Positions 14,083 to 57,486 of a stretch of DNA of 64,000 nucleotides are shown here, in pieces; position 1 is the stretch's first letter; each line of letters starts with the position of its first letter. The position numbers and the translations under genes are program-made. Location of the stretch: IMG/VR virus record IMGVR_UViG_3300050159_000048. One strand, written 5' to 3'. This DNA comes from a virus (Duplodnaviria; Caudoviricetes). Under the pieces are notes generated by a model. It was not told the DNA's origin, did not search any database, and saw only the letters and a program-made list of their open reading frames with translations.

Positions 14083-14100
14083 ATGTTTACCCTTGAGATT

Positions 14101-14138
14101 GTGGTATTTACGTTATTGATCCCTGTATTAAATACCAC
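14101..14138. promoter_or_regulatory. Divergent pair of late promoters forming a 10-bp inverted repeat
   Basis: GTGGTATTTA (14101-14110) and TAAATACCAC (14129-14138). Confidence 0.7.
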
Positions 14139-14155
14139 ACACATAAGGAGAAACT

Positions 14156-14944
14156 ATGTCCAACACCAATCCACTACTAGCCAAAATCCGCATCCCCGGT
14201 GCTACATTCCGTCTGCCATCCCAAGGTCTATTCTACGAGGACGGAGAACTTGCCGAAGGCGTGACGAAGGGTGAAGTTGAGGTGTATCCGATGACCGCTG
14301 TGGATGAAATTGTGCTGGCGACACCAGACAAGCTGCTGTCTGGCCGTGCAATCATGGAGATTTTCGCTCGGTGCATTCCACAAGTGATCAAGCCTGAGAA
14401 GCTGTTGACGCGTGATGTGGACTTTCTGATGGTGTGTTTGCGCTCTGTGTCGTTTGGCGATGCGATGGAAGTCACATATACCCACGATTGCGCTAACGCA
14501 AAGACCCACACATTTAGCGTCGACATTCAACAAATGATCCGTGAAACCAAGGTAGTTGACCCAACGTCAATTAACCAAGAATACACGTGTACGGTACCAA
14601 ATGGTCAGATTGTTACCCTGAAGCCACTGACGTACGACAATGTGATTGAGTTGTATCAAACAACTGCTCTAATGAAAGAGGACGAGCTCAGCATTAATGA
14701 GGCGGAGCAGCTGGTGTTGGACACGCTGTCCAACGTGATTCGACGCGTCGATGACGTGACGGATAAGCAGCAAATCCGTGAGTGGGTTAAGTCCATCCCG
14801 CTTGGGTGGAAGCGCAAGATTGAAGGTGCGGCACAAATGGTCAGTCAGTGGGGTGTGGATTTCACATCACGCCAAAAGTGTCCTGATTGCGGTGAGGAGG
14901 CCCACGTCCAGGTATCTGCAAATCCAGTAAGTTTTTTTTCATGA
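14156..14944 (+). CDS. T4 gp26-like baseplate hub / tail assembly chaperone
   Basis: LPSQGLFY, EVEVYPMTAVDE, DVDFLMVCLRSVSFG, CPDCG; ends SFFS. Confidence 0.75.
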   Translation: MSNTNPLLAKIRIPGATFRLPSQGLFYEDGELAEGVTKGEVEVYPMTAVDEIVLATPDKLLSGRAIMEIFARCIPQVIKPEKLLTRDVDFLMVCLRSVSFGDAMEVTYTHDCANAKTHTFSVDIQQMIRETKVVDPTSINQEYTCTVPNGQIVTLKPLTYDNVIELYQTTALMKEDELSINEAEQLVLDTLSNVIRRVDDVTDKQQIREWVKSIPLGWKRKIEGAAQMVSQWGVDFTSRQKCPDCGEEAHVQVSANPVSFFS

Positions 14945-15168
14945 CCCTCCGATCTGGAACGATTGAGGAGAAGCAGCAAATGTTCTCCTCAATGGTCAAT
15001 GACCGGAGGCGTATTATCAAATCGATCATTCAACTGGTGTATTTCATGCGCGGAGCGGTTCAATACGAAACCATGATGTCCATGTCGTCATTTGAGCGAA
15101 GTATGGTAAGTGAGTTCGTGGAGGATCGGCTCGAGGTGGAATCGAAGAAGATGTATCCGCAATACTAA
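14941..15168 (+). CDS. T4 gp51-like small hub assembly protein (possible frameshift extension of the upstream ORF)
   Basis: 75 aa, ATGA overlap, -1 frame relative to the upstream ORF, no clear SD. Confidence 0.6.
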   Translation: MTLRSGTIEEKQQMFSSMVNDRRRIIKSIIQLVYFMRGAVQYETMMSMSSFERSMVSEFVEDRLEVESKKMYPQY

Positions 15169-15496
15169 GCCAGCTCCACGCAGGCATCATAGAGAGACCG
15201 GCTTGGCAGCCGGAGAGATTGTTGAGTTCGGTACCCTTCACTCAACAATCTCTAGCGGTGAAGTAACGCGGTTAAAGGGAATTATCAATCCCTGCCCCGC
15301 GTTTTCGTAGCTGATTGGAAGTACCTCACGGTTCACAGAAGTGAACAATTGTATGAAAAGTGGCCATAACTCCCAAGGTGGTCAACTTTGGTGGGCTCTA
15401 TACCACAGGCTCGTTAGTGCGGCTCCACGCACTCTGTTCCTACACCGGTGGGAGAAGGGTATCACCACCTGACGTTTCTAGTTATACTGTATTGTT
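15169..15496 (+). ncRNA. Candidate structured non-coding RNA
   Basis: Non-coding gap with at least 7 stems, including a perfect 14-bp stem, and a loop-loop complement. G-U pairs favour the plus strand. Confidence 0.5.
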
Positions 15497-15979
15497 TCAG
15501 TCCGGCATGCGCGCAATCCAATACGCGTCGGTCAAATCCGTGAGACCGGTAGTCTTCTTAAAGCCTGCGTCTAAAAACTTCTGTCGAACGTCGTCTGAGA
15601 GTGCTTCTATCATTGCCTTTTTATCAGCCTTGCCACTTCCTGTGGCCTTCTTTTTCACCGAAGTAGGTGCGTATTCCTTGAATACGATAGTGGGGTGCTC
15701 GTAAGCAACAAGATTGACGATCGTAAACAACAATCCAGCCAAGTCTCGAGTTGCATCCCCTCTGATTCCGAAAGCCAATCCTTCTGCTTTAAGCATCGTT
15801 GGATTATGTTTCTTGATCAGTTCACAGATTTTCTTTGCGGTTGACAACGCACGGGCGTATGTAGTGTCCGTTTTTTCGGTTGTAAACCGTCCGAATTCTT
15901 CCATCTGCTGTGATTCAGTGTTCCACAATACGTATCCACAGCTAGTATACGATTGGTCAATTCCCAGTACAAGTGCCAT
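15497..15979 (-). CDS. ruvC: RuvC-like Holliday junction resolvase
   Basis: LGIDQS, KAEG, PTSVKKKATGSGKADK, DLTDAY acidic active-site pattern. Confidence 0.9.
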   Translation of the reverse strand: MALVLGIDQSYTSCGYVLWNTESQQMEEFGRFTTEKTDTTYARALSTAKKICELIKKHNPTMLKAEGLAFGIRGDATRDLAGLLFTIVNLVAYEHPTIVFKEYAPTSVKKKATGSGKADKKAMIEALSDDVRQKFLDAGFKKTTGLTDLTDAYWIARMPD

Positions 15980-16018
15980 TTTACCCTCTCTAAACCTATT
16001 TAAGAGGGTAAAATGGCA
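15974..16018 (-). promoter_or_regulatory. RBS-sequestering hairpin with a late promoter in its loop
   Basis: 16-bp perfect inverted repeat covering the SD and ATG; TAAATA at 16002-15997. Confidence 0.8.
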
Positions 16019-16025
16019 GTGATTC

Positions 16026-17783
16026 TTATGCTGGTAGCGGTTCCTGGAGAATTCCGCTGAACCCCTTGCTGAGTTGAACCGTCATTTTGCGGTCGAACAT
16101 ACCGTCAATTTCAGCACGGTGAGAGATCACAAAAGTAGAGGTCTTATGTGTGCGAGCTAGATGCTTGATCAAGTATGCGCAAGCAGTAACTCCGCCAGCA
16201 TCCAGGCCATAATCTAGCACTTCATCGAATACAGTAAGGTTTGTTCGACCGTACAGACGAGACCGCACATCACGAAACGCCAAAGATAGCGCAAAGTGAA
16301 TGCGAGCGCGTTGCCCCGTAGACATCAGGCCGACGTCGAACTCACTACCAAGTTTGGTGATCATAACGTCAAGCTCATGGGTGAACTCAATAGAATGTGG
16401 CAATCCGAGATCCGCTAGGTAGTTCTTCAACTGCTTATTCAGATACGGCAGGTTCTTATTCAGCAATGCCTTACGAACGAAACTATCATTCTTCGTCAGG
16501 AGCTTGAGCAAGAAGTCTTGATGTTTCAATTCCTTGTCTAGAGCGTTAGCCTGCTCATAATCAACCTCATCAAGCTTGACGTCTAGCAGCTCTTGCAGAG
16601 GTTCCTCATACGGATTCTGCGCCACTTCACCTTCAGCGATACGCTGTCGGAACGAAGATGCTTGATCGCGGATGGCCAACAACTCAGTCAAATTAGGCAC
16701 AGTAATCTTCGCAGACACCGTTTCTGCCTCCCGCTCGAGTTGTGTGATCTTACGGCTGATCATCTGACGCACCTCTGTGGCCTCTGCTAACTCCTCGTTC
16801 AGTGCAATTTGTTGGGTTGACAGACGAGTGATGTTTGTTGCGGCGTCGGGGTGTCCCTGCATGCAGTACGGACACTTGTTATCCCGCAGATGGATCAACT
16901 CCTCAGCAATCTTACGCAGTGCGGTATTCAGATCAGCAATTGTGCGGTCCTCAAGCTTGAGCTCTGATCGCAGTTCACGAATCGCAGATTGTACTTCAGC
17001 AACTTTGGCGTGAAGTTCACGCTCAGCGTCGAAGTCAATGTTGTCAATCTTCGCCAGCTTGGTTTTCAAATCTGCAACGGTTTTGGCGTTTTGAATCACC
17101 CAATCCGAAACGCGACGCTTGGCTGTTTCGATAAGAGTAGAATGCCGCTCATGTTCACGAATTAGTTGATCAATCGTGCTCTTTTTGTGCACGAGTTCCT
17201 TCTTGGTATCCTTGATCAATGTACGCAGCTTGTCAGCCTTGTCGGAAATGACAGTAATACCAAAAATCTCTTCAATGAACTCTTTTTGCTTCGGGCTGGG
17301 CAAATCCAGAAAGCCTTCTGTGCTGGCCTTGAATGCAACGATCTGCTCAAACATATCAGCAGGAATACCGATTGTTTGGGCAATAATCTTGTTGGTATCA
17401 CCATTAGGTACAACAGTGATGTCCTTGCCGTCTTCGTAGAAGAATACCTTGTTACCCTCTGCACCAGCCTTCATCTTGCGCATCCGGTGGATCTTGTAAT
17501 GCTTGCCATTGACAGCAAACTCCAAGATCACTTCCATCTGCTTTTTGTTGACGTTGTTGACGAGGCTGTCAACAGGGACTTTGCGGGGTGATTTATCAAA
17601 CAAGACATACACCAAAGCGGTGAGCACGGCTGTTGATTTACCAACGCCGTTACTACCGCCGTCGATGTGGTCTAGGTTCTCCCCAACAATCAGAGTGGTT
17701 CCGCTGATGTTGAGGGGTACTGTGGTTAAGTTGTTCCCGTACGACAGGAAATTGCGTAGGGAGATGGAAATGAACTCAATCAT
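16026..17783 (-). CDS. Recombination endonuclease ATPase subunit, gp46/SbcC/Rad50-like
   Basis: Walker A GVGKS, zinc hook CPYC, signature MSTGQ, Walker B FDE. Confidence 0.95.
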   Translation of the reverse strand: MIEFISISLRNFLSYGNNLTTVPLNISGTTLIVGENLDHIDGGSNGVGKSTAVLTALVYVLFDKSPRKVPVDSLVNNVNKKQMEVILEFAVNGKHYKIHRMRKMKAGAEGNKVFFYEDGKDITVVPNGDTNKIIAQTIGIPADMFEQIVAFKASTEGFLDLPSPKQKEFIEEIFGITVISDKADKLRTLIKDTKKELVHKKSTIDQLIREHERHSTLIETAKRRVSDWVIQNAKTVADLKTKLAKIDNIDFDAERELHAKVAEVQSAIRELRSELKLEDRTIADLNTALRKIAEELIHLRDNKCPYCMQGHPDAATNITRLSTQQIALNEELAEATEVRQMISRKITQLEREAETVSAKITVPNLTELLAIRDQASSFRQRIAEGEVAQNPYEEPLQELLDVKLDEVDYEQANALDKELKHQDFLLKLLTKNDSFVRKALLNKNLPYLNKQLKNYLADLGLPHSIEFTHELDVMITKLGSEFDVGLMSTGQRARIHFALSLAFRDVRSRLYGRTNLTVFDEVLDYGLDAGGVTACAYLIKHLARTHKTSTFVISHRAEIDGMFDRKMTVQLSKGFSGILQEPLPA

Positions 17784-18839
17784 TTAGAGGCGCCGGTATT
17801 GTTGTATTAGTAGGGCGTTATCAATTTGGTCTGATTTGATGTCTGAGAGCATCTGAACAATCAAGTCATCAATCGTCGTTCCGTCTGTATCACCCGATGC
17901 TTCAGGAACATCAACGTCCGTTTCCGTTCCGCTGATGGCTTCGACAGCATCTTTGGGCTCTTCGTATGTGAATTCACGCAATTCAAATTGCTTCATCATT
18001 AGTTCCCGTAGATTGTTTGTCTCTTCAAGTGACAATTCCTCATCTAAGACACATTTCACCCGTGACTGAGGACGTATAATAATACCTCCATCCAGGATCT
18101 TTGACACCTTGAACCGGAGGTAAAGGGGAGCGTCCGGCCAATCTTGGAATGTTACATCGCGGATGGTATGGTCGTATACGGCCATACCTCGACTGTAATC
18201 ACCAACGTCACCAAAGTCCATTGGAAATGTGTTGCCGATGTATACAATGTTGTCCTTCTGCTGTCGTTGATGGAAATGGCCTGACAGAATGTGTTCTGGG
18301 CCCGCGAACTTTTTGTGGTCAGGTCCGTGTTGCATTACCATGCTGTAACCGGTAACGCGGAAACCTTGAAATTCGAAGTGTCCTGCCCAAAACGGTAGAC
18401 TCAGATACTCGTCCAGCTTGTCGTACTCTTCGTGAAATAGATACGGACTGAAAAAGGCCCCATCCCCTATTTCTGGAATAATCGTTGGGGTATCGATCAC
18501 ACGAAAATTCGAAAACTCCTGGAATGGTAGGACGGAGTAGATTTCTCGCGTATGTCGATGATACAGGTCGTGATTCCCAACAACAAAGTAAACTGGTAGA
18601 CCTAAGTCGTTTAGCATTTTTGCGCCAGTATACGAATACGTCAGAGTTGCTAGGTTGATGGCGCTACGGTTTTCATTCCAATCACCCAAGAACCCAACGT
18701 AATCGATCGTTGGATCGGCCCGCACTTGCTCACAAAACCACCGCAGGTGGTTTAGACAGTCTTGATTGTGTATTGGTGAGTTGGACTTCTTGCCGAAGTG
18801 GATGTCGGTAAGAAACGCACCTTTCTTCAGTTGTGTCAT
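17784..18839 (-). CDS. Recombination endonuclease nuclease subunit, gp47/SbcD/Mre11-like
   Basis: DIHFG, GD, GNHD and GHFH metallophosphoesterase motifs. Confidence 0.95.
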   Translation of the reverse strand: MTQLKKGAFLTDIHFGKKSNSPIHNQDCLNHLRWFCEQVRADPTIDYVGFLGDWNENRSAINLATLTYSYTGAKMLNDLGLPVYFVVGNHDLYHRHTREIYSVLPFQEFSNFRVIDTPTIIPEIGDGAFFSPYLFHEEYDKLDEYLSLPFWAGHFEFQGFRVTGYSMVMQHGPDHKKFAGPEHILSGHFHQRQQKDNIVYIGNTFPMDFGDVGDYSRGMAVYDHTIRDVTFQDWPDAPLYLRFKVSKILDGGIIIRPQSRVKCVLDEELSLEETNNLRELMMKQFELREFTYEEPKDAVEAISGTETDVDVPEASGDTDGTTIDDLIVQMLSDIKSDQIDNALLIQQYRRL

Positions 18840-19450
18840 GCCAAGCTGTCCTCGCTGCTATCAGCATCATCCAGCTCAACGGCTGCCAATTCGTCAGCCA
18901 TTTCCGCAACCTCTTGGTCAATGATTTCGCGACCATTCTCATCGCGTTCGATTGGAGCATCAATGAATTGAACCTTTTGTTGGCGCTCAATGCCAGACGA
19001 AAGAGTGTCGAAGTCTTGCTCATCTTCAATGTAGTGTCGATCACTACCATCTTCGTTGAAACCAAACGAAGGATTTAGCCCCTGTGCAATCATCATCTTG
19101 TCGCGCAACACACGATGTTTCTTTTCGTGCTTCAGATATTGTGAGAACGAGTTCTTAATGCACTGGGTGTAGAATGCGAATGGATTGCTACTGACTTCAG
19201 GATTGAAACTCTTCCAGGTTCGCACAATCATCATCATAGCGTACGCTTGCATGTCTTGATTGTATGAATAGCCGCTGTAACTGCCCTTCATAGCATACCG
19301 CGAACACAGCAATTGCAGCATCTTGGCGAATGTGTTGGACATTTCGCCCTTCTCCTGCGACGCCTTGTACTCAGCTAGCAGTTCCTTATTGTTGAGATAG
19401 ATCGTACGACCGTTTTGTGTAATTGATGTGGGGTAGTTTTTGGTTGCCAT
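18836..19450 (-). CDS. Late transcription sigma factor, gp55-like
   Basis: YLNNKELL, FNPEVSSNPFAFYTQCIKNSF. Start at ATG 19450 preferred. Confidence 0.88.
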   Translation of the reverse strand: MATKNYPTSITQNGRTIYLNNKELLAEYKASQEKGEMSNTFAKMLQLLCSRYAMKGSYSGYSYNQDMQAYAMMMIVRTWKSFNPEVSSNPFAFYTQCIKNSFSQYLKHEKKHRVLRDKMMIAQGLNPSFGFNEDGSDRHYIEDEQDFDTLSSGIERQQKVQFIDAPIERDENGREIIDQEVAEMADELAAVELDDADSSEDSLA

Positions 19451-19485
19451 GTGGTTTTTAACCTTCTTGGTGAGGTTTTGAGTTG

Positions 19486-19514
19486 ATAGTACGCCAAAAA
19501 ATTGGCAAGGGCAA
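19486..19514 (-). promoter_or_regulatory. sigma70 promoter of the gp55-gp47-gp46 operon
   Basis: TTGCCC-N17-TACTAT. Confidence 0.6.
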
Positions 19515-19517
19515 CGG

Positions 19518-19525
19518 GATAAATA
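19518..19525 (+). promoter_or_regulatory. Late promoter (GATAAATA)
   Basis: Upstream of the baseplate operon. Confidence 0.7.
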
Positions 19526-19552
19526 CAAAACCTAAAGAGAGTTGGTATCCGT

Positions 19553-28768: not shown

Positions 28769-28811
28769 TACCCTCTCATAAATATCCATGAACATAGCAT
28801 ATGAGAGGGTA
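28769..28811 (+). promoter_or_regulatory. RBS-sequestering hairpin overlapping late promoter CATAAATA (28777-28784)
   Basis: 12-bp perfect inverted repeat TACCCTCTCATA/TATGAGAGGGTA just before GTG 28817. Confidence 0.75.
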
Positions 28812-28816
28812 ATCCC

Positions 28817-31800
28817 GTGTCCAATCAGTCTGACCACAAGAAGCCATCGCTTGACATTACTACACTACTGCCTGAAGTATACCAGTCAGAGGTAGGAGAC
28901 GGCGTATTCAAGAACGCCTTCAATCGTCACCTAACAAAGGACGACACGTCGCGTGTTGCTGGTTTTGTGGGTACTGCAAACCCGAGCGCCCTTGTTGATC
29001 GTCAGATCAAGGAGGCGGACGCGCACCGTCAAGCATTCCAACTAGCTCCCACTATGATTTCAACGGTGGGAACTCAAACATCCACATTGTCATTTAAGGC
29101 ATTCCTCCGTCAACTATCCTTGATGGGTATTGATATTGACCGCATGGATGATTGGGCTGCAACAGAACAGTTCAACTGGGTACCTCCCGTCAACGTTGAC
29201 ATGTTGGTCAACTATCAAGACTACTTCTGGAAACCTGCTAGCGCTAACGATGCCCCACAATACTTCACGGTAGAAAACCGGTGTAACAAGGCACAAAGCC
29301 GCGTCCAATCATATCAACAAGTTCTGAACATCCGTGGAGATGCCTTCGTTGTTACCAGCATGAGCTTCGCCACTAACACCCTGAACATTGCGGGTCGTTA
29401 CGATGACGTGTTCAGCACAGGTTTTGATTTCTACACCAAGGATTCCAACAACGTCAATTTCCGCAACAAGTTCTGGACGGTTGAATCATCGTCGTATGAT
29501 ATCAGCACTAACACAACAGCGATTGTTGTACTGGAGCCAATGGCAACAAGCAGTGAAACTGCTCCTCTACAGCCTCGGGTTGACCAGCTGTGGTACGTGC
29601 CGTCGACAGCACAAATGTTCACGTGGACAGGATCTGCGTGGGTTGCCGCTGCTCAATCATACACTATCTCAATCTCACTTGAAGAGCAGCTCACTGTATA
29701 CCAAGCCGAAGCTAATTGCATTTGTAACCAGACTTCTGGTTGGGACACAGCAGCATGGGATGACAATAGTTCCACCGGTACCTCATGGACTGTTGCTTGG
29801 CTGCAAGGTATCTCGTTCAACACCGCTTTACAGTGGGTCGCTACCAACGGTCAACCGGTAAACGGATCACAGTGGTATAACACAACAACCGATGAGTTGT
29901 TGACATACAGCACTGCATCCAATGGTTGGGAACCTGCGCAGCTTGGTCTGTCGCAATTGATCGACCGCCTTAACGGTAAAGCTCTGTGGGACATGACTCA
30001 GGGATGTGAGAGTCAACGCCATACTCAATGGTCTGACAACAATCGCTGGATTCACAAATCTCAAGTGCAGTCATATGCGGACGTGCGCCGAGCTCAGCTA
30101 CCAATCTTGGAATACTCTAGCCGCATTGAGTTGAATCAATGGTCACATTTCAACTACGTGTGGAAATACCGCAGCTCGACGGACGATGCATTCGCAACAT
30201 CCGACTACCGTCCAAGCCGACTGGAGCTGGAACCTATCAAGGGATATTTTGCCGTTAGTATTGGTGGAGCTTGGTACATCTACCTAAGCAACAACGTCAG
30301 CCAGATGGACGTGGACATTGACTACACCAGCACCTTTACTTCGGGGTATCGCTTCCGTGTAACCGACGACTCGCTTGTGTCGCAGGTATACACCGTCGAA
30401 TCTAGCGAGTACCGTCAAGTATCACCATCCGAAGCAGCACACGCAGTGATCCAAGACACGTTTGCCACAGTGATTAAGCTGGTTGAAACCACGTTCACCA
30501 GCTCCGTAACTGGCGGCGGTTCCGCCCACGCCCGTATCGAACCGATGCGCACATCGCGTGGCGACGGCTGGCGCGGTTATCATGTTCACTGGGTGCTAAA
30601 CGACACAGCTACAACGACAACAGCTACGAGCAATGCGTCGGTGAATCCTCGGTTGCAAACATCGCTGGATAGTGAAATCACACCGGTGTCTACATCAACG
30701 CTATCAGCTCACTTTGATACAGGTCAAGCATTTCAACCAGCCAACTTGCCTATTGAAATTGGTTCACTGCATCAAACTGTGTTCGTCGGCACCTCCCCAA
30801 TTTCACGCATCGACTTGCTGGATAAGTTCCGTTACCAACCCTCTCTAGCTGCCGTATACGCTGCTCCCAACACAAACAACCTGCGAGTCTACGTCAATGA
30901 CGTACGTCAGTTCAACACTTACACGGAAGTTGTGGGCGTTAGCACTCGTGACGTAACGGTCATTGGTAACGTTGCAAACACCACAGGCACCGTTGTTGAA
31001 TATGTGCAAGCTGTTGAGTTCACTCACCCGCTACAACCTTTGGATCAAGTTCGTATTGAAGTTGGCCCTGCTGCTTTGTCGGAGATGGGTTGGTCGCACG
31101 TCCCTGTTCGCACAATTGAGGATGAAACTCAGTTTGCTGTTGCCGTTAACAATGGCACTCAACCAGAATATCGTTCAATGGTCTCGATCCGTAAGATCGA
31201 ACAGGTGAAGAGCATCACCAACCAATACCCACTGTTCAACGCATATGATGTTGTGACGGGTGAAGTTGTTGACGCAAACCCCCTGTTTGCTTTCCACGAG
31301 GATGCATCCTTCTACGTCAACACGTCAGTTGACCGCCGCATTTCTGTATCTACAGACGGGAAGGAGTTTGAATTTGAACAGTACTTGGTTGAGGATGATG
31401 ACGGCCAAATCTACGGATACCGCCAAGGCCCGGTTACCGTAGAGTACTGGTTCAACCCAACCACCAGTGTGCTGAAGGCTTGGAAAAATGGCGGTTGGGT
31501 CACTAAGCTACCCGTACCACTGGCGCTGGGCGTTGTGTCGTACGTCACACCCACCATTGCCACCATAGCACCCGCAGCGGTCGACGGTGCTGTTTGGTAC
31601 CACCCTACAACAAACGTGTTGCGTGTTCGCTCGAACAACCTGTGGACAGTAATTCCTGGCGTGCTGGCGTCGGAGACAGACCCAACAATCACCACAATTT
31701 GGCGGAAGGACGATACAGCGATGTACGTCCCGCAGTACCTTGACAAGGATGGTAACGAGGTTACTATTGGATCCGCTGATGGTGATTGGGGCATTGTTGA

Positions 31801-56851: not shown

Positions 56852-57436
56852 TTATTTGTTATGATTAGTATTTAGTAGCTTACCGTATCCGTCACACGCA
56901 CTGGCTCGGACCGCATAGTAGTACGGAATCCCATACAGTATCACCTCCGCGTCGGCAGAAATGCCTTCGTGAAGGTTATGCGTGACGTATGTGTACCTCA
57001 CAACATCTGCAATGATGGAGGAGGCTTCTGCCTTGTCGTCTAGCTCTTCAACCAGGGCGGTTAGAGCCGTTTGGTAAGCCGTATTTGATTCATGTACTTC
57101 TTTGCTGTACATGAACTGATATCCGTCGATTGGGAAGACGTAGAACGGCTCTGTGTTTTGAGGCAGGGATGGAGTGTTTGGGTAAGCAAAGATTGCGCGT
57201 TGGCGAATATTACTGAACTGCTTACCGAATGCCATATTAAACGCGTCGGACACGTCGTCTTTGCGTTTTTGTTGGCGAACTTTCACCTTGTGAAAGTTGT
57301 GATACGTCACTGGGAGAGCTTTGAGTAAAGGCAATCCAGCCGACTCTTTTAGGAACTGTGCGCAATCAGTCTTGATCTTTTGCACCTCGCGAATTCCAAG
57401 ACCAACGCTCGTTCCAATAATGTCCTCAATGAGCAT
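56852..57436 (-). CDS. Hypothetical late protein
   Basis: 194 aa; start codon region held in a 13-bp hairpin. Confidence 0.7.
   Translation of the reverse strand: MLIEDIIGTSVGLGIREVQKIKTDCAQFLKESAGLPLLKALPVTYHNFHKVKVRQQKRKDDVSDAFNMAFGKQFSNIRQRAIFAYPNTPSLPQNTEPFYVFPIDGYQFMYSKEVHESNTAYQTALTALVEELDDKAEASSIIADVVRYTYVTHNLHEGISADAEVILYGIPYYYAVRASACDGYGKLLNTNHNK
56869..56876 (-). promoter_or_regulatory. Late promoter (ACTAAATA) inside the upstream gene end
   Basis: Upstream of ORF 56843. Confidence 0.5.
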
Positions 57437-57475
57437 ACTTTCCCCTTTGACGGGTATTTAGGGCTCATTGAGGAC
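57422..57475 (-). promoter_or_regulatory. Start-sequestering hairpin with a late promoter in its loop
   Basis: 13-bp perfect inverted repeat GTCCTCAATGAGC/GCTCATTGAGGAC; TAAATA at 57460-57455. Confidence 0.8.
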
Positions 57476-57486
57476 GTTTCTGCGCC

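Follow-up and report, generated by a model that had tools for sequence, protein, structure and literature searches.

In bacteriophage T4, the genes e, soc, 49 and I-TevI are gated by a hairpin covering the ribosome binding site (RBS); the hairpin of e is kept in close T4 relatives, and synthesis of lysozyme, the product of this gene, is approximately 100-fold lower on the structured RNA (PMC3014915; PMC2988022). For e, soc and I-TevI, the long transcripts made at early or middle times cover their RBS by folding, and RNAs from late promoters a short distance upstream omit the 5′ strand of the helix. Gene 49, encoding the junction resolvase endonuclease VII, is found after co-directional genes and has its Shine-Dalgarno sequence (SD) in a hairpin of which the late RNA lacks the 5′ arm. 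A different association of promoters and stem-loops in T4-type phages, the PeSL (promoter-early stem-loop) cassette, was reportedly described by Arbiol et al. in 2010; these cassettes are said to be intergenic, to consist of an early sigma70 promoter followed by a stem-loop, and to have been discussed as mobile shuffling modules.

Here we describe a hairpin over the start of a ruvC gene in an uncultured T4-related phage. As in T4 gene 49, a junction resolvase is encoded after co-directional genes, the SD is located in a hairpin, and the predicted late RNA lacks the 5′ arm. The locus shares with the PeSL cassettes the physical joining of a promoter to a stem-loop in an intergenic region of a T4-type genome, but in PeSL an early promoter precedes the stem-loop, whereas here the stem-loop covers the RBS and has a late box inside it. 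The hairpin is very likely a translational gate of the T4 e/soc/49/I-TevI type, in which the origin of the transcript would decide whether ruvC is translated. The mechanism is known, and the novelty lies in its target, a non-homologous resolvase of a distant uncultured clade, and in the broad natural covariation seen there. Titles and abstracts found by a literature search for RuvC in combination with a late promoter or stem-loop in T4-like phages mention no such gate.

The ruvC gene and its genomic context

The window, i.e. the whole stretch of 64,000 nucleotides that was analyzed, originates from a 183-kb uncultured virus record (completeness approximately 52%) that recurs in leaf-litter metagenomes. 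T4-type core genes are present in the source phage, and its portal protein is approximately 48–50% identical to those of the Xanthomonas XacN1 and Stenotrophomonas RAS14 jumbo myoviruses, which are the nearest cultured phages by portal. On the minus strand, a gp55-like, a gp47/SbcD-like and a gp46/SbcC-like gene, abutting or overlapping each other, are followed by ruvC, the final coding gene of the co-directional block. The gp55-like late sigma factor (18836–19450) matches phrog_234 (“late sigma transcription factor”; 2e-23) and, when taken as 18836–19528, phrog_12791 (4e-18). Its likely start is the ATG at 19450, which has an AAGG upstream, the mechanically called ORF starting with the TTG at 19528; gene calls at this position give a 204-aa product both on contigs encoding an identical RuvC and in one relative of 59% identity. 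The gp47/SbcD-like nuclease subunit (17784–18839) matches Pfam Metallophos (1.4e-8) and phrog_100 (2.5e-52). The gp46/SbcC-like subunit (16026–17783, with the stop codon TAA at 16028–16026) matches Pfam AAA_23 above the cut-off (4.1e-8) and phrog_77 (6e-99), while its match to SMC_N (4.9e-10) reaches 39.6 bits, slightly below the cut-off of 40. A search of viral contigs with gp46 as query gave no confirmed locus.

The ORF at 15497–15979 on the minus strand, encoding 160 residues, was assigned to the RuvC family of Holliday-junction resolvases based on a profile match above cut-off (PF02075, 5.1e-10, 39.9 bits vs a curated cut-off of 22.2) and on four acidic catalytic residues (D8, E66, D148 and D151) that are invariant in 30 homologs. 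It also matches phrog_159 (2.7e-27), and the family profile matches the RuvC structure with PDB accession 7w8d (6e-5). Searching the 183-kb record with the endonuclease VII profile (PF02945) gave no match, a result to be read with the approximately 52% completeness of the record and with the control genomes, which also gave none.

A perfect hairpin over the ruvC start

The region between gp46 and ruvC contains an inverted repeat with two 16-nt arms that are 100% complementary and 13 nt apart. Read in the direction of transcription (minus strand), the 5′ arm (16003–16018) begins after a spacer of 7 nt from the gp46 stop and would be present only on transcripts starting upstream. The 3′ arm (15974–15989) contains both the SD GAGGG (15988–15984) and the AUG (15979–15977) of ruvC, against which the 5′ arm acts as the pairing strand. 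The 13-nt loop (15990–16002) opens with TAAATA (15997–16002), the putative core of a gp55-type late promoter. The observation with which an earlier note on this DNA had started, a perfect 16-bp hairpin that buries SD and AUG and carries TAAATA in its loop, was thus confirmed, with arms at 16018–16003 and 15989–15974.

The predicted fold of the RNA from 15950 to 16045 has a free energy of -36.3 kcal/mol (z = -6.4), and none of 200 shuffled sequences was as stable; in this fold, SD and AUG are sequestered in the 16-bp helix of the long transcript. Perfect inverted repeats with 16-nt arms and a loop of 3–30 nt occur once in the window and in none of 100 shuffles of the window. A functionless palindrome that arose by chance is effectively refuted by the absence of such repeats from the shuffles, the z-score and the recurrence of the layout in independent lineages (see below), leaving this explanation with a negligible probability.

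We also considered an intrinsic (rho-independent) terminator, which was rejected: the 3′ arm is followed by CUUGUACUGGG, a hairpin without a U-run is not a terminator, and a terminator scan gave no site at 15974–16018. Rfam and tRNA scans of 15000–16200 returned sub-threshold chance matches to generic hairpin models only.

TAAATA behaves as the late-promoter core

TAAATA is not over-represented in the 183-kb record (81 copies vs approximately 96 expected), and it is its placement that is distinctive: 46 of the 81 copies are located in sense orientation 0–60 nt upstream of a gene start, compared to 0–8 such placements for permuted hexamers of the same composition, excepting the overlapping words ATAAAT and AAATAT. 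In the window, the genes preceded by TAAATA are mostly structural, encoding e.g. portal, baseplate and neck proteins. Distances from TAAATA to the start codon cluster at 12–32 nt, with 17 nt for ruvC. A homolog of gp55 is encoded by the phage itself, two genes upstream of gp46. From its placement, TAAATA behaves as the late-promoter core of this phage. Among 44 promoter-like sites, the preceding base is A in 29 cases and T in two, one of them the ruvC site; given the rarity of this T, the TAAATA before ruvC may be a weak late promoter.

The late promoter of T4 is an 8-bp box at -13 to -6 (PMC2988020). Applying this geometry, late transcription would begin with the sixth base past the box, position 15991 on the minus strand, which coincides with the position near which a late start had been expected earlier. 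A sharp peak at the spacing TAAATA-N5-ATG among relatives (14 of 67 loci, see below) fits this offset. With a 5′ end at approximately 15991, the late mRNA would lack the 5′ arm.

A different arrangement was observed at 14085–14154, in the region that separates the gene for a 768-aa protein from the baseplate gene at 14156. Here, two divergently oriented promoters of the late type and their leaders (TAAATACCACA... on either strand) make up a 26-nt imperfect inverted repeat, which looks like a promoter-leader module duplicated in mirror orientation and not like a gate.

Computed closed and open states

For each of the 46 genes preceded by TAAATA, we calculated the opening energy, defined as the free energy required to unpair the region from -13 to +4, for a long RNA including 40 nt upstream of the box and for a short RNA beginning at the predicted late +1. 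The RBS of ruvC required 27.0 kcal/mol in the long RNA and 2.3 kcal/mol in the late RNA, the largest difference of all (rank 1 of 46). By the same measure, the leader of T4 gene 49 (NC_000866) gave 14.7 kcal/mol in the long and 3.2 kcal/mol in the short form. Other strong gates in the genome were found before the gene for a 3327-aa protein at 28817, before the gene for a 194-aa protein at 57436 and before a gene for a 107-aa protein outside the window, in addition to weaker ones.

In the mechanism that we propose, an RNA started upstream carries both arms, and such an RNA would most likely be an early or middle mRNA reading through gp55-gp47-gp46. The 16-bp helix would then bury the SD and AUG of ruvC, preventing 30S binding and allowing little or no resolvase to be made. 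Once transcription is directed by gp55, RNA polymerase would start from the TAAATA box in the loop, at approximately 15991, and yield a late mRNA with a leader of approximately 12 nt, a free SD and no 5′ arm, from which ruvC could be translated. A plausible rationale is that a junction-cutting nuclease would in this way be kept off replicating and recombining DNA until packaging.

Possible read-through from the upstream genes

The proposed closed state presupposes transcripts that enter ruvC from gp46. A terminator scan found no terminator-like site between the two genes. On the minus strand, TAAATA is absent between 15997 and 42439, so that gp55-gp47-gp46 is not preceded by a late box belonging to it. 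Before gp55, a single promoter-like element was found, a candidate of the host-sigma70 type, i.e. the early type (TTGCCC, 17 nt, TACTAT; 19486–19514, minus strand), which is weak with 8 of 12 matching positions and falls below the threshold of the promoter scan. The clearer early-type promoters of this genome have an extended GTTGAC-N17-TAnAnT form and are found 20–60 nt before genes of the replication module (e.g. before 55479, 50112 and 46004). The earlier note had ruvC as the last gene of a sigma70-driven gp55-gp47-gp46 operon. Gene order and common direction agree with this, while the sigma70 part is plausible but weakly supported, since the promoter match is weak. That the block belongs to the early class is suggested by analogy to T4 in combination with this 8/12 candidate.

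Conservation of the putative gate in related phages

Six loci encoding an identical RuvC (L011–L016) have a junction that is 100% identical and hence uninformative. The closest non-identical relatives, P0002 (73%) and P0004 (63%), have the same gene order. Six distinct relatives with RuvC identities of 59–62% (L017, L021, L186, L188, L190 and L191) all show TAAATA in the loop between a 5′ arm and a 3′ arm that covers the SD beside the AUG (in L188, the 3′ arm ends right at the SD), and the arm sequences differ in each of them. Opening energies, scored in four of the six, are approximately 7–17 kcal/mol in the long and 2–4 kcal/mol in the short form. The helices of L017 and L021 need G-U pairs on the sense strand.

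These differences bear on whether the repeat functions as DNA, either as the site of a dimeric regulator at the late promoter or as a cruciform sensed by the resolvase. The repeat is indeed centered on the promoter box, and I-TevI represses its own late promoter through an operator that overlaps this promoter (PMC2988022). However, the relatives conserve only complementarity and position over the RBS and not the sequences of the arms, and some helices depend on the sense-strand G-U pairs mentioned above. A spacer of 13 nt, moreover, disfavors cruciform extrusion. We therefore regard a DNA-level role as highly improbable. A comparison of sense and antisense stability slightly favored the sense strand (18 vs 10, p = 0.02) and was not counted as support for a gate in RNA, because the test is biased by the selection of loci; a DNA palindrome is identical on both strands.

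Scans of metagenomes and IMG/VR added 160 further loci, and 118 unique regions upstream of ruvC were obtained. TAAATA is located 0–45 nt before the ruvC start in 67 of the 118, with a bimodal distribution of distances: exactly 5 nt in 14 of the 67 (e.g. L104, L052, L040, L135, L092, L115 and L047) and 17–29 nt in most others. The 5-nt spacing suggests a leaderless late mRNA at these 14 loci. Loci without TAAATA (L156, L036, L078, L022, L151; L033, L120, L121) often have ATAAGTA, or TATATAC, 4–6 nt before the ruvC ATG, and these words may be late-box variants used in other clades, their spacing again being that of a leaderless mRNA. In rV5-like coliphages, the RuvC-like gene overlaps the upstream gene and no gate was found, and in XacN1 and RAS14 no RuvC gene is annotated in the stretches adjoining the portal gene.

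Gate strength was defined as the opening energy of the long form minus that of the short form. As the arms vary in length and register, their pairing was evaluated with a swap control, in which each 3′ part was joined to the 5′ part of another locus. These comparative tests are based on predicted folds and an assumed start site, in lineages that are not fully independent. For loci with TAAATA, the median gate strength was 6.6 kcal/mol, compared to 1.9 kcal/mol for the swapped constructs (p = 7e-16). After thinning to 58 dissimilar loci, 25 had a gate of at least 8 kcal/mol vs 4.7% of the swaps (binomial test, 2e-18; Mann-Whitney test, 1e-15), and among the leadered loci of this set the fraction was 23/40. 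Approximately half of the TAAATA-bearing relatives are without a strong gate, many of them having TAAATA-N5-ATG instead. At the same loci, a gate was found for 42% of the ruvC genes and for 11% of 79 other genes preceded by TAAATA (p = 4e-11). A gate was furthermore present in 26 of 50 cases with the end of a co-directional ORF no more than 200 nt upstream and in 2 of 17 otherwise (Fisher's exact test, 0.003), and in 13 of the 17 loci with gp46 directly upstream. The T4-style gate proposed in the earlier note is accordingly supported at the level of sequence: the layout is kept with different arms, and gates are commoner at ruvC and where a co-directional gene lies upstream.

The helices of the relatives vary from approximately 5 to 20 bp, and their 3′ arms cover the SD and/or the AUG or abut the SD. 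This tracking of SD and AUG would be unneeded if the hairpin were a stabilizer of the gp46 mRNA 3′ end or an RNase III-type processing site, with only an incidental overlap with the RBS. Such a role would fit a long perfect helix placed right after the end of a gene, and hairpins between cistrons do serve in RNA processing in T-odd and T-even phages. The lack of a U-run, of a terminator detectable by scanning and of an Rfam family also speaks against an element of this kind, which we judge to be improbable.

Another possibility is translational coupling, in which a ribosome finishing gp46 melts the helix, so that RuvC would be made early at a fixed low ratio to gp46 and not be silenced. The 5′ arm does begin close to the upstream stop codon, 7 nt past it here and 0–5 nt past it in many relatives. 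Ribosome footprint sizes are established, and by these a ribosome halted at the gp46 TAA would get no further than the first one or two pairs of the 16-bp helix, while the SD pairs at the loop end, distant from the stop. In T4 gene 49, the 5′ arm of the gate also begins 2–3 nt past the stop codon of the neighboring gene pin, and proximity to a stop is thus no argument against gating. The short form was closed in 0 of the 58 thinned lineages, and an open short form in every lineage is something that coupling alone leaves unexplained. Overall, coupling appears unlikely, and gating by transcript origin is the reading that we retain.

In AT-rich relatives, a gate of this layout was also seen before another gene (L127:862, L068:888, L064:991 and L062:991), with strengths of 9–22 kcal/mol; the 5′ arm is TTTACCCAT, TAAATA is located in the loop and the 3′ arm, ATGGGTAAA, covers the AUG.

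Comparison to characterized systems

The earlier statement that T4 uses this logic for gene 49, e and soc was borne out by the literature (PMC3014915) and by the gene 49 leader, which shows a late box within the 5′ arm of the hairpin covering the SD. Beyond the shared organization, the arm cores of the gene 49 and ruvC hairpins are alike (TACCCT/AGGGTA), because both pair with an SD of the AGGG type. There are also clear differences: gene 49 encodes a protein with the endonuclease VII fold, whereas the protein encoded here is unrelated and has the RuvC/RNase H fold; the T4 box, AATAAATA, is part of the 5′ arm, whereas TAAATA is found in the loop here; gene 49 has an annotated internal second start, and none was found in ruvC; and the upstream neighbor is pin in T4 and gp46 here. 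The placement of the box is variable among the relatives, and in four of them (L032, L109, L060 and L133) the 5′ arm either overlies the box or follows it closely, resembling T4 gene 49. The gates of e, soc and I-TevI control other genes and were proven by RNA end mapping and mutants, while that of ruvC is deduced from sequence and comparison.

Among cultured phages, the Alishewanella phage vB_AspM_Slicko01 (OQ508956) has a similar locus, in which a gp46-like gene is located directly upstream, TAAATA is found 19 nt before the ATG and the SD lies in a hairpin. The leader of its RuvC-like gene requires 9.8 kcal/mol for opening in the long form vs 2.8 kcal/mol in the short form. It differs from the locus described here in that the RuvC proteins share 35% identity, the 5′ arm and the box overlap, and a clear intrinsic terminator is found between gp46 and the gate, giving the order gp46, terminator, TAAATA, hairpin and RuvC-like gene. 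The feature is absent from the annotation of the record. Slicko01 provides a cultured phage in which the gate model is testable.

Unrelated resolvases, endonuclease VII in T4 and a RuvC-fold enzyme in distant T4-related phages, would thus be placed behind the same RNA gate. Its occurrence on unrelated resolvases, and its reconstruction from different stems in dozens of lineages, argue for selection that is both strong and general and that would keep junction-cutting nucleases off early, replicating phage DNA. The relatives also form an extensive natural collection of compensatory variants of a regulatory RNA so far known from few T-even examples, and the layout can serve as a rule for annotating late promoters and gated genes when uncultured T4-related and jumbo phages are analyzed.

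Other candidate gates and minor observations

The same layout was found before at least three other genes of this genome, encoding a 3327-aa virion protein (after late baseplate genes), the 194-aa protein and the 107-aa protein. The similarity between the arms of these gates and those of ruvC is due to the SD. More tentatively, and with less than even confidence, the gate could be a clade-wide device that follows the function of junction resolvase and not ancestry, and that in this phage group serves, beyond switching between early and late, as a general filter for which promoter made a given RNA. If the general filter is real, the gate would set the stoichiometry among late genes; if the clade-wide device is real, sister lineages would reach the same end via leaderless late mRNAs (TAAATA-N5-AUG).

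The hairpin before the 3327-aa gene (28769–28811, plus strand; gene start at 28817) has 12 perfect pairs; TAAATA, starting at 28779, is found where the 5′ arm ends, and the SD GAGAGGG is covered by the 3′ arm. Opening requires 19.1 kcal/mol in the long vs 6.0 kcal/mol in the short form. As the upstream gene encodes a late baseplate wedge protein, this gate would separate two kinds of late RNA and not early from late RNA. Before the 194-aa gene (56852–57436, minus strand), for which no PHROG match was found, an inverted repeat of 13–16 bp at 57419–57478 carries TAAATA in the loop, and what its 3′ arm spans is not the SD but the AUG with the first five codons (14.4 vs 2.7 kcal/mol).

Downstream of ruvC, a stem-rich gap of approximately 330 nt (15169–15496) separates this gene from a convergent gene encoding a 75-aa protein. 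It contains a perfect 14-bp hairpin at 15214–15253, gave no clear terminator, tRNA or Rfam match, and possibly represents a non-coding RNA or a bidirectional stop of transcription. At 14930–14945, eight consecutive T form the end of a baseplate-like ORF; the ATG of the 75-aa ORF, which overlaps with it, follows immediately.
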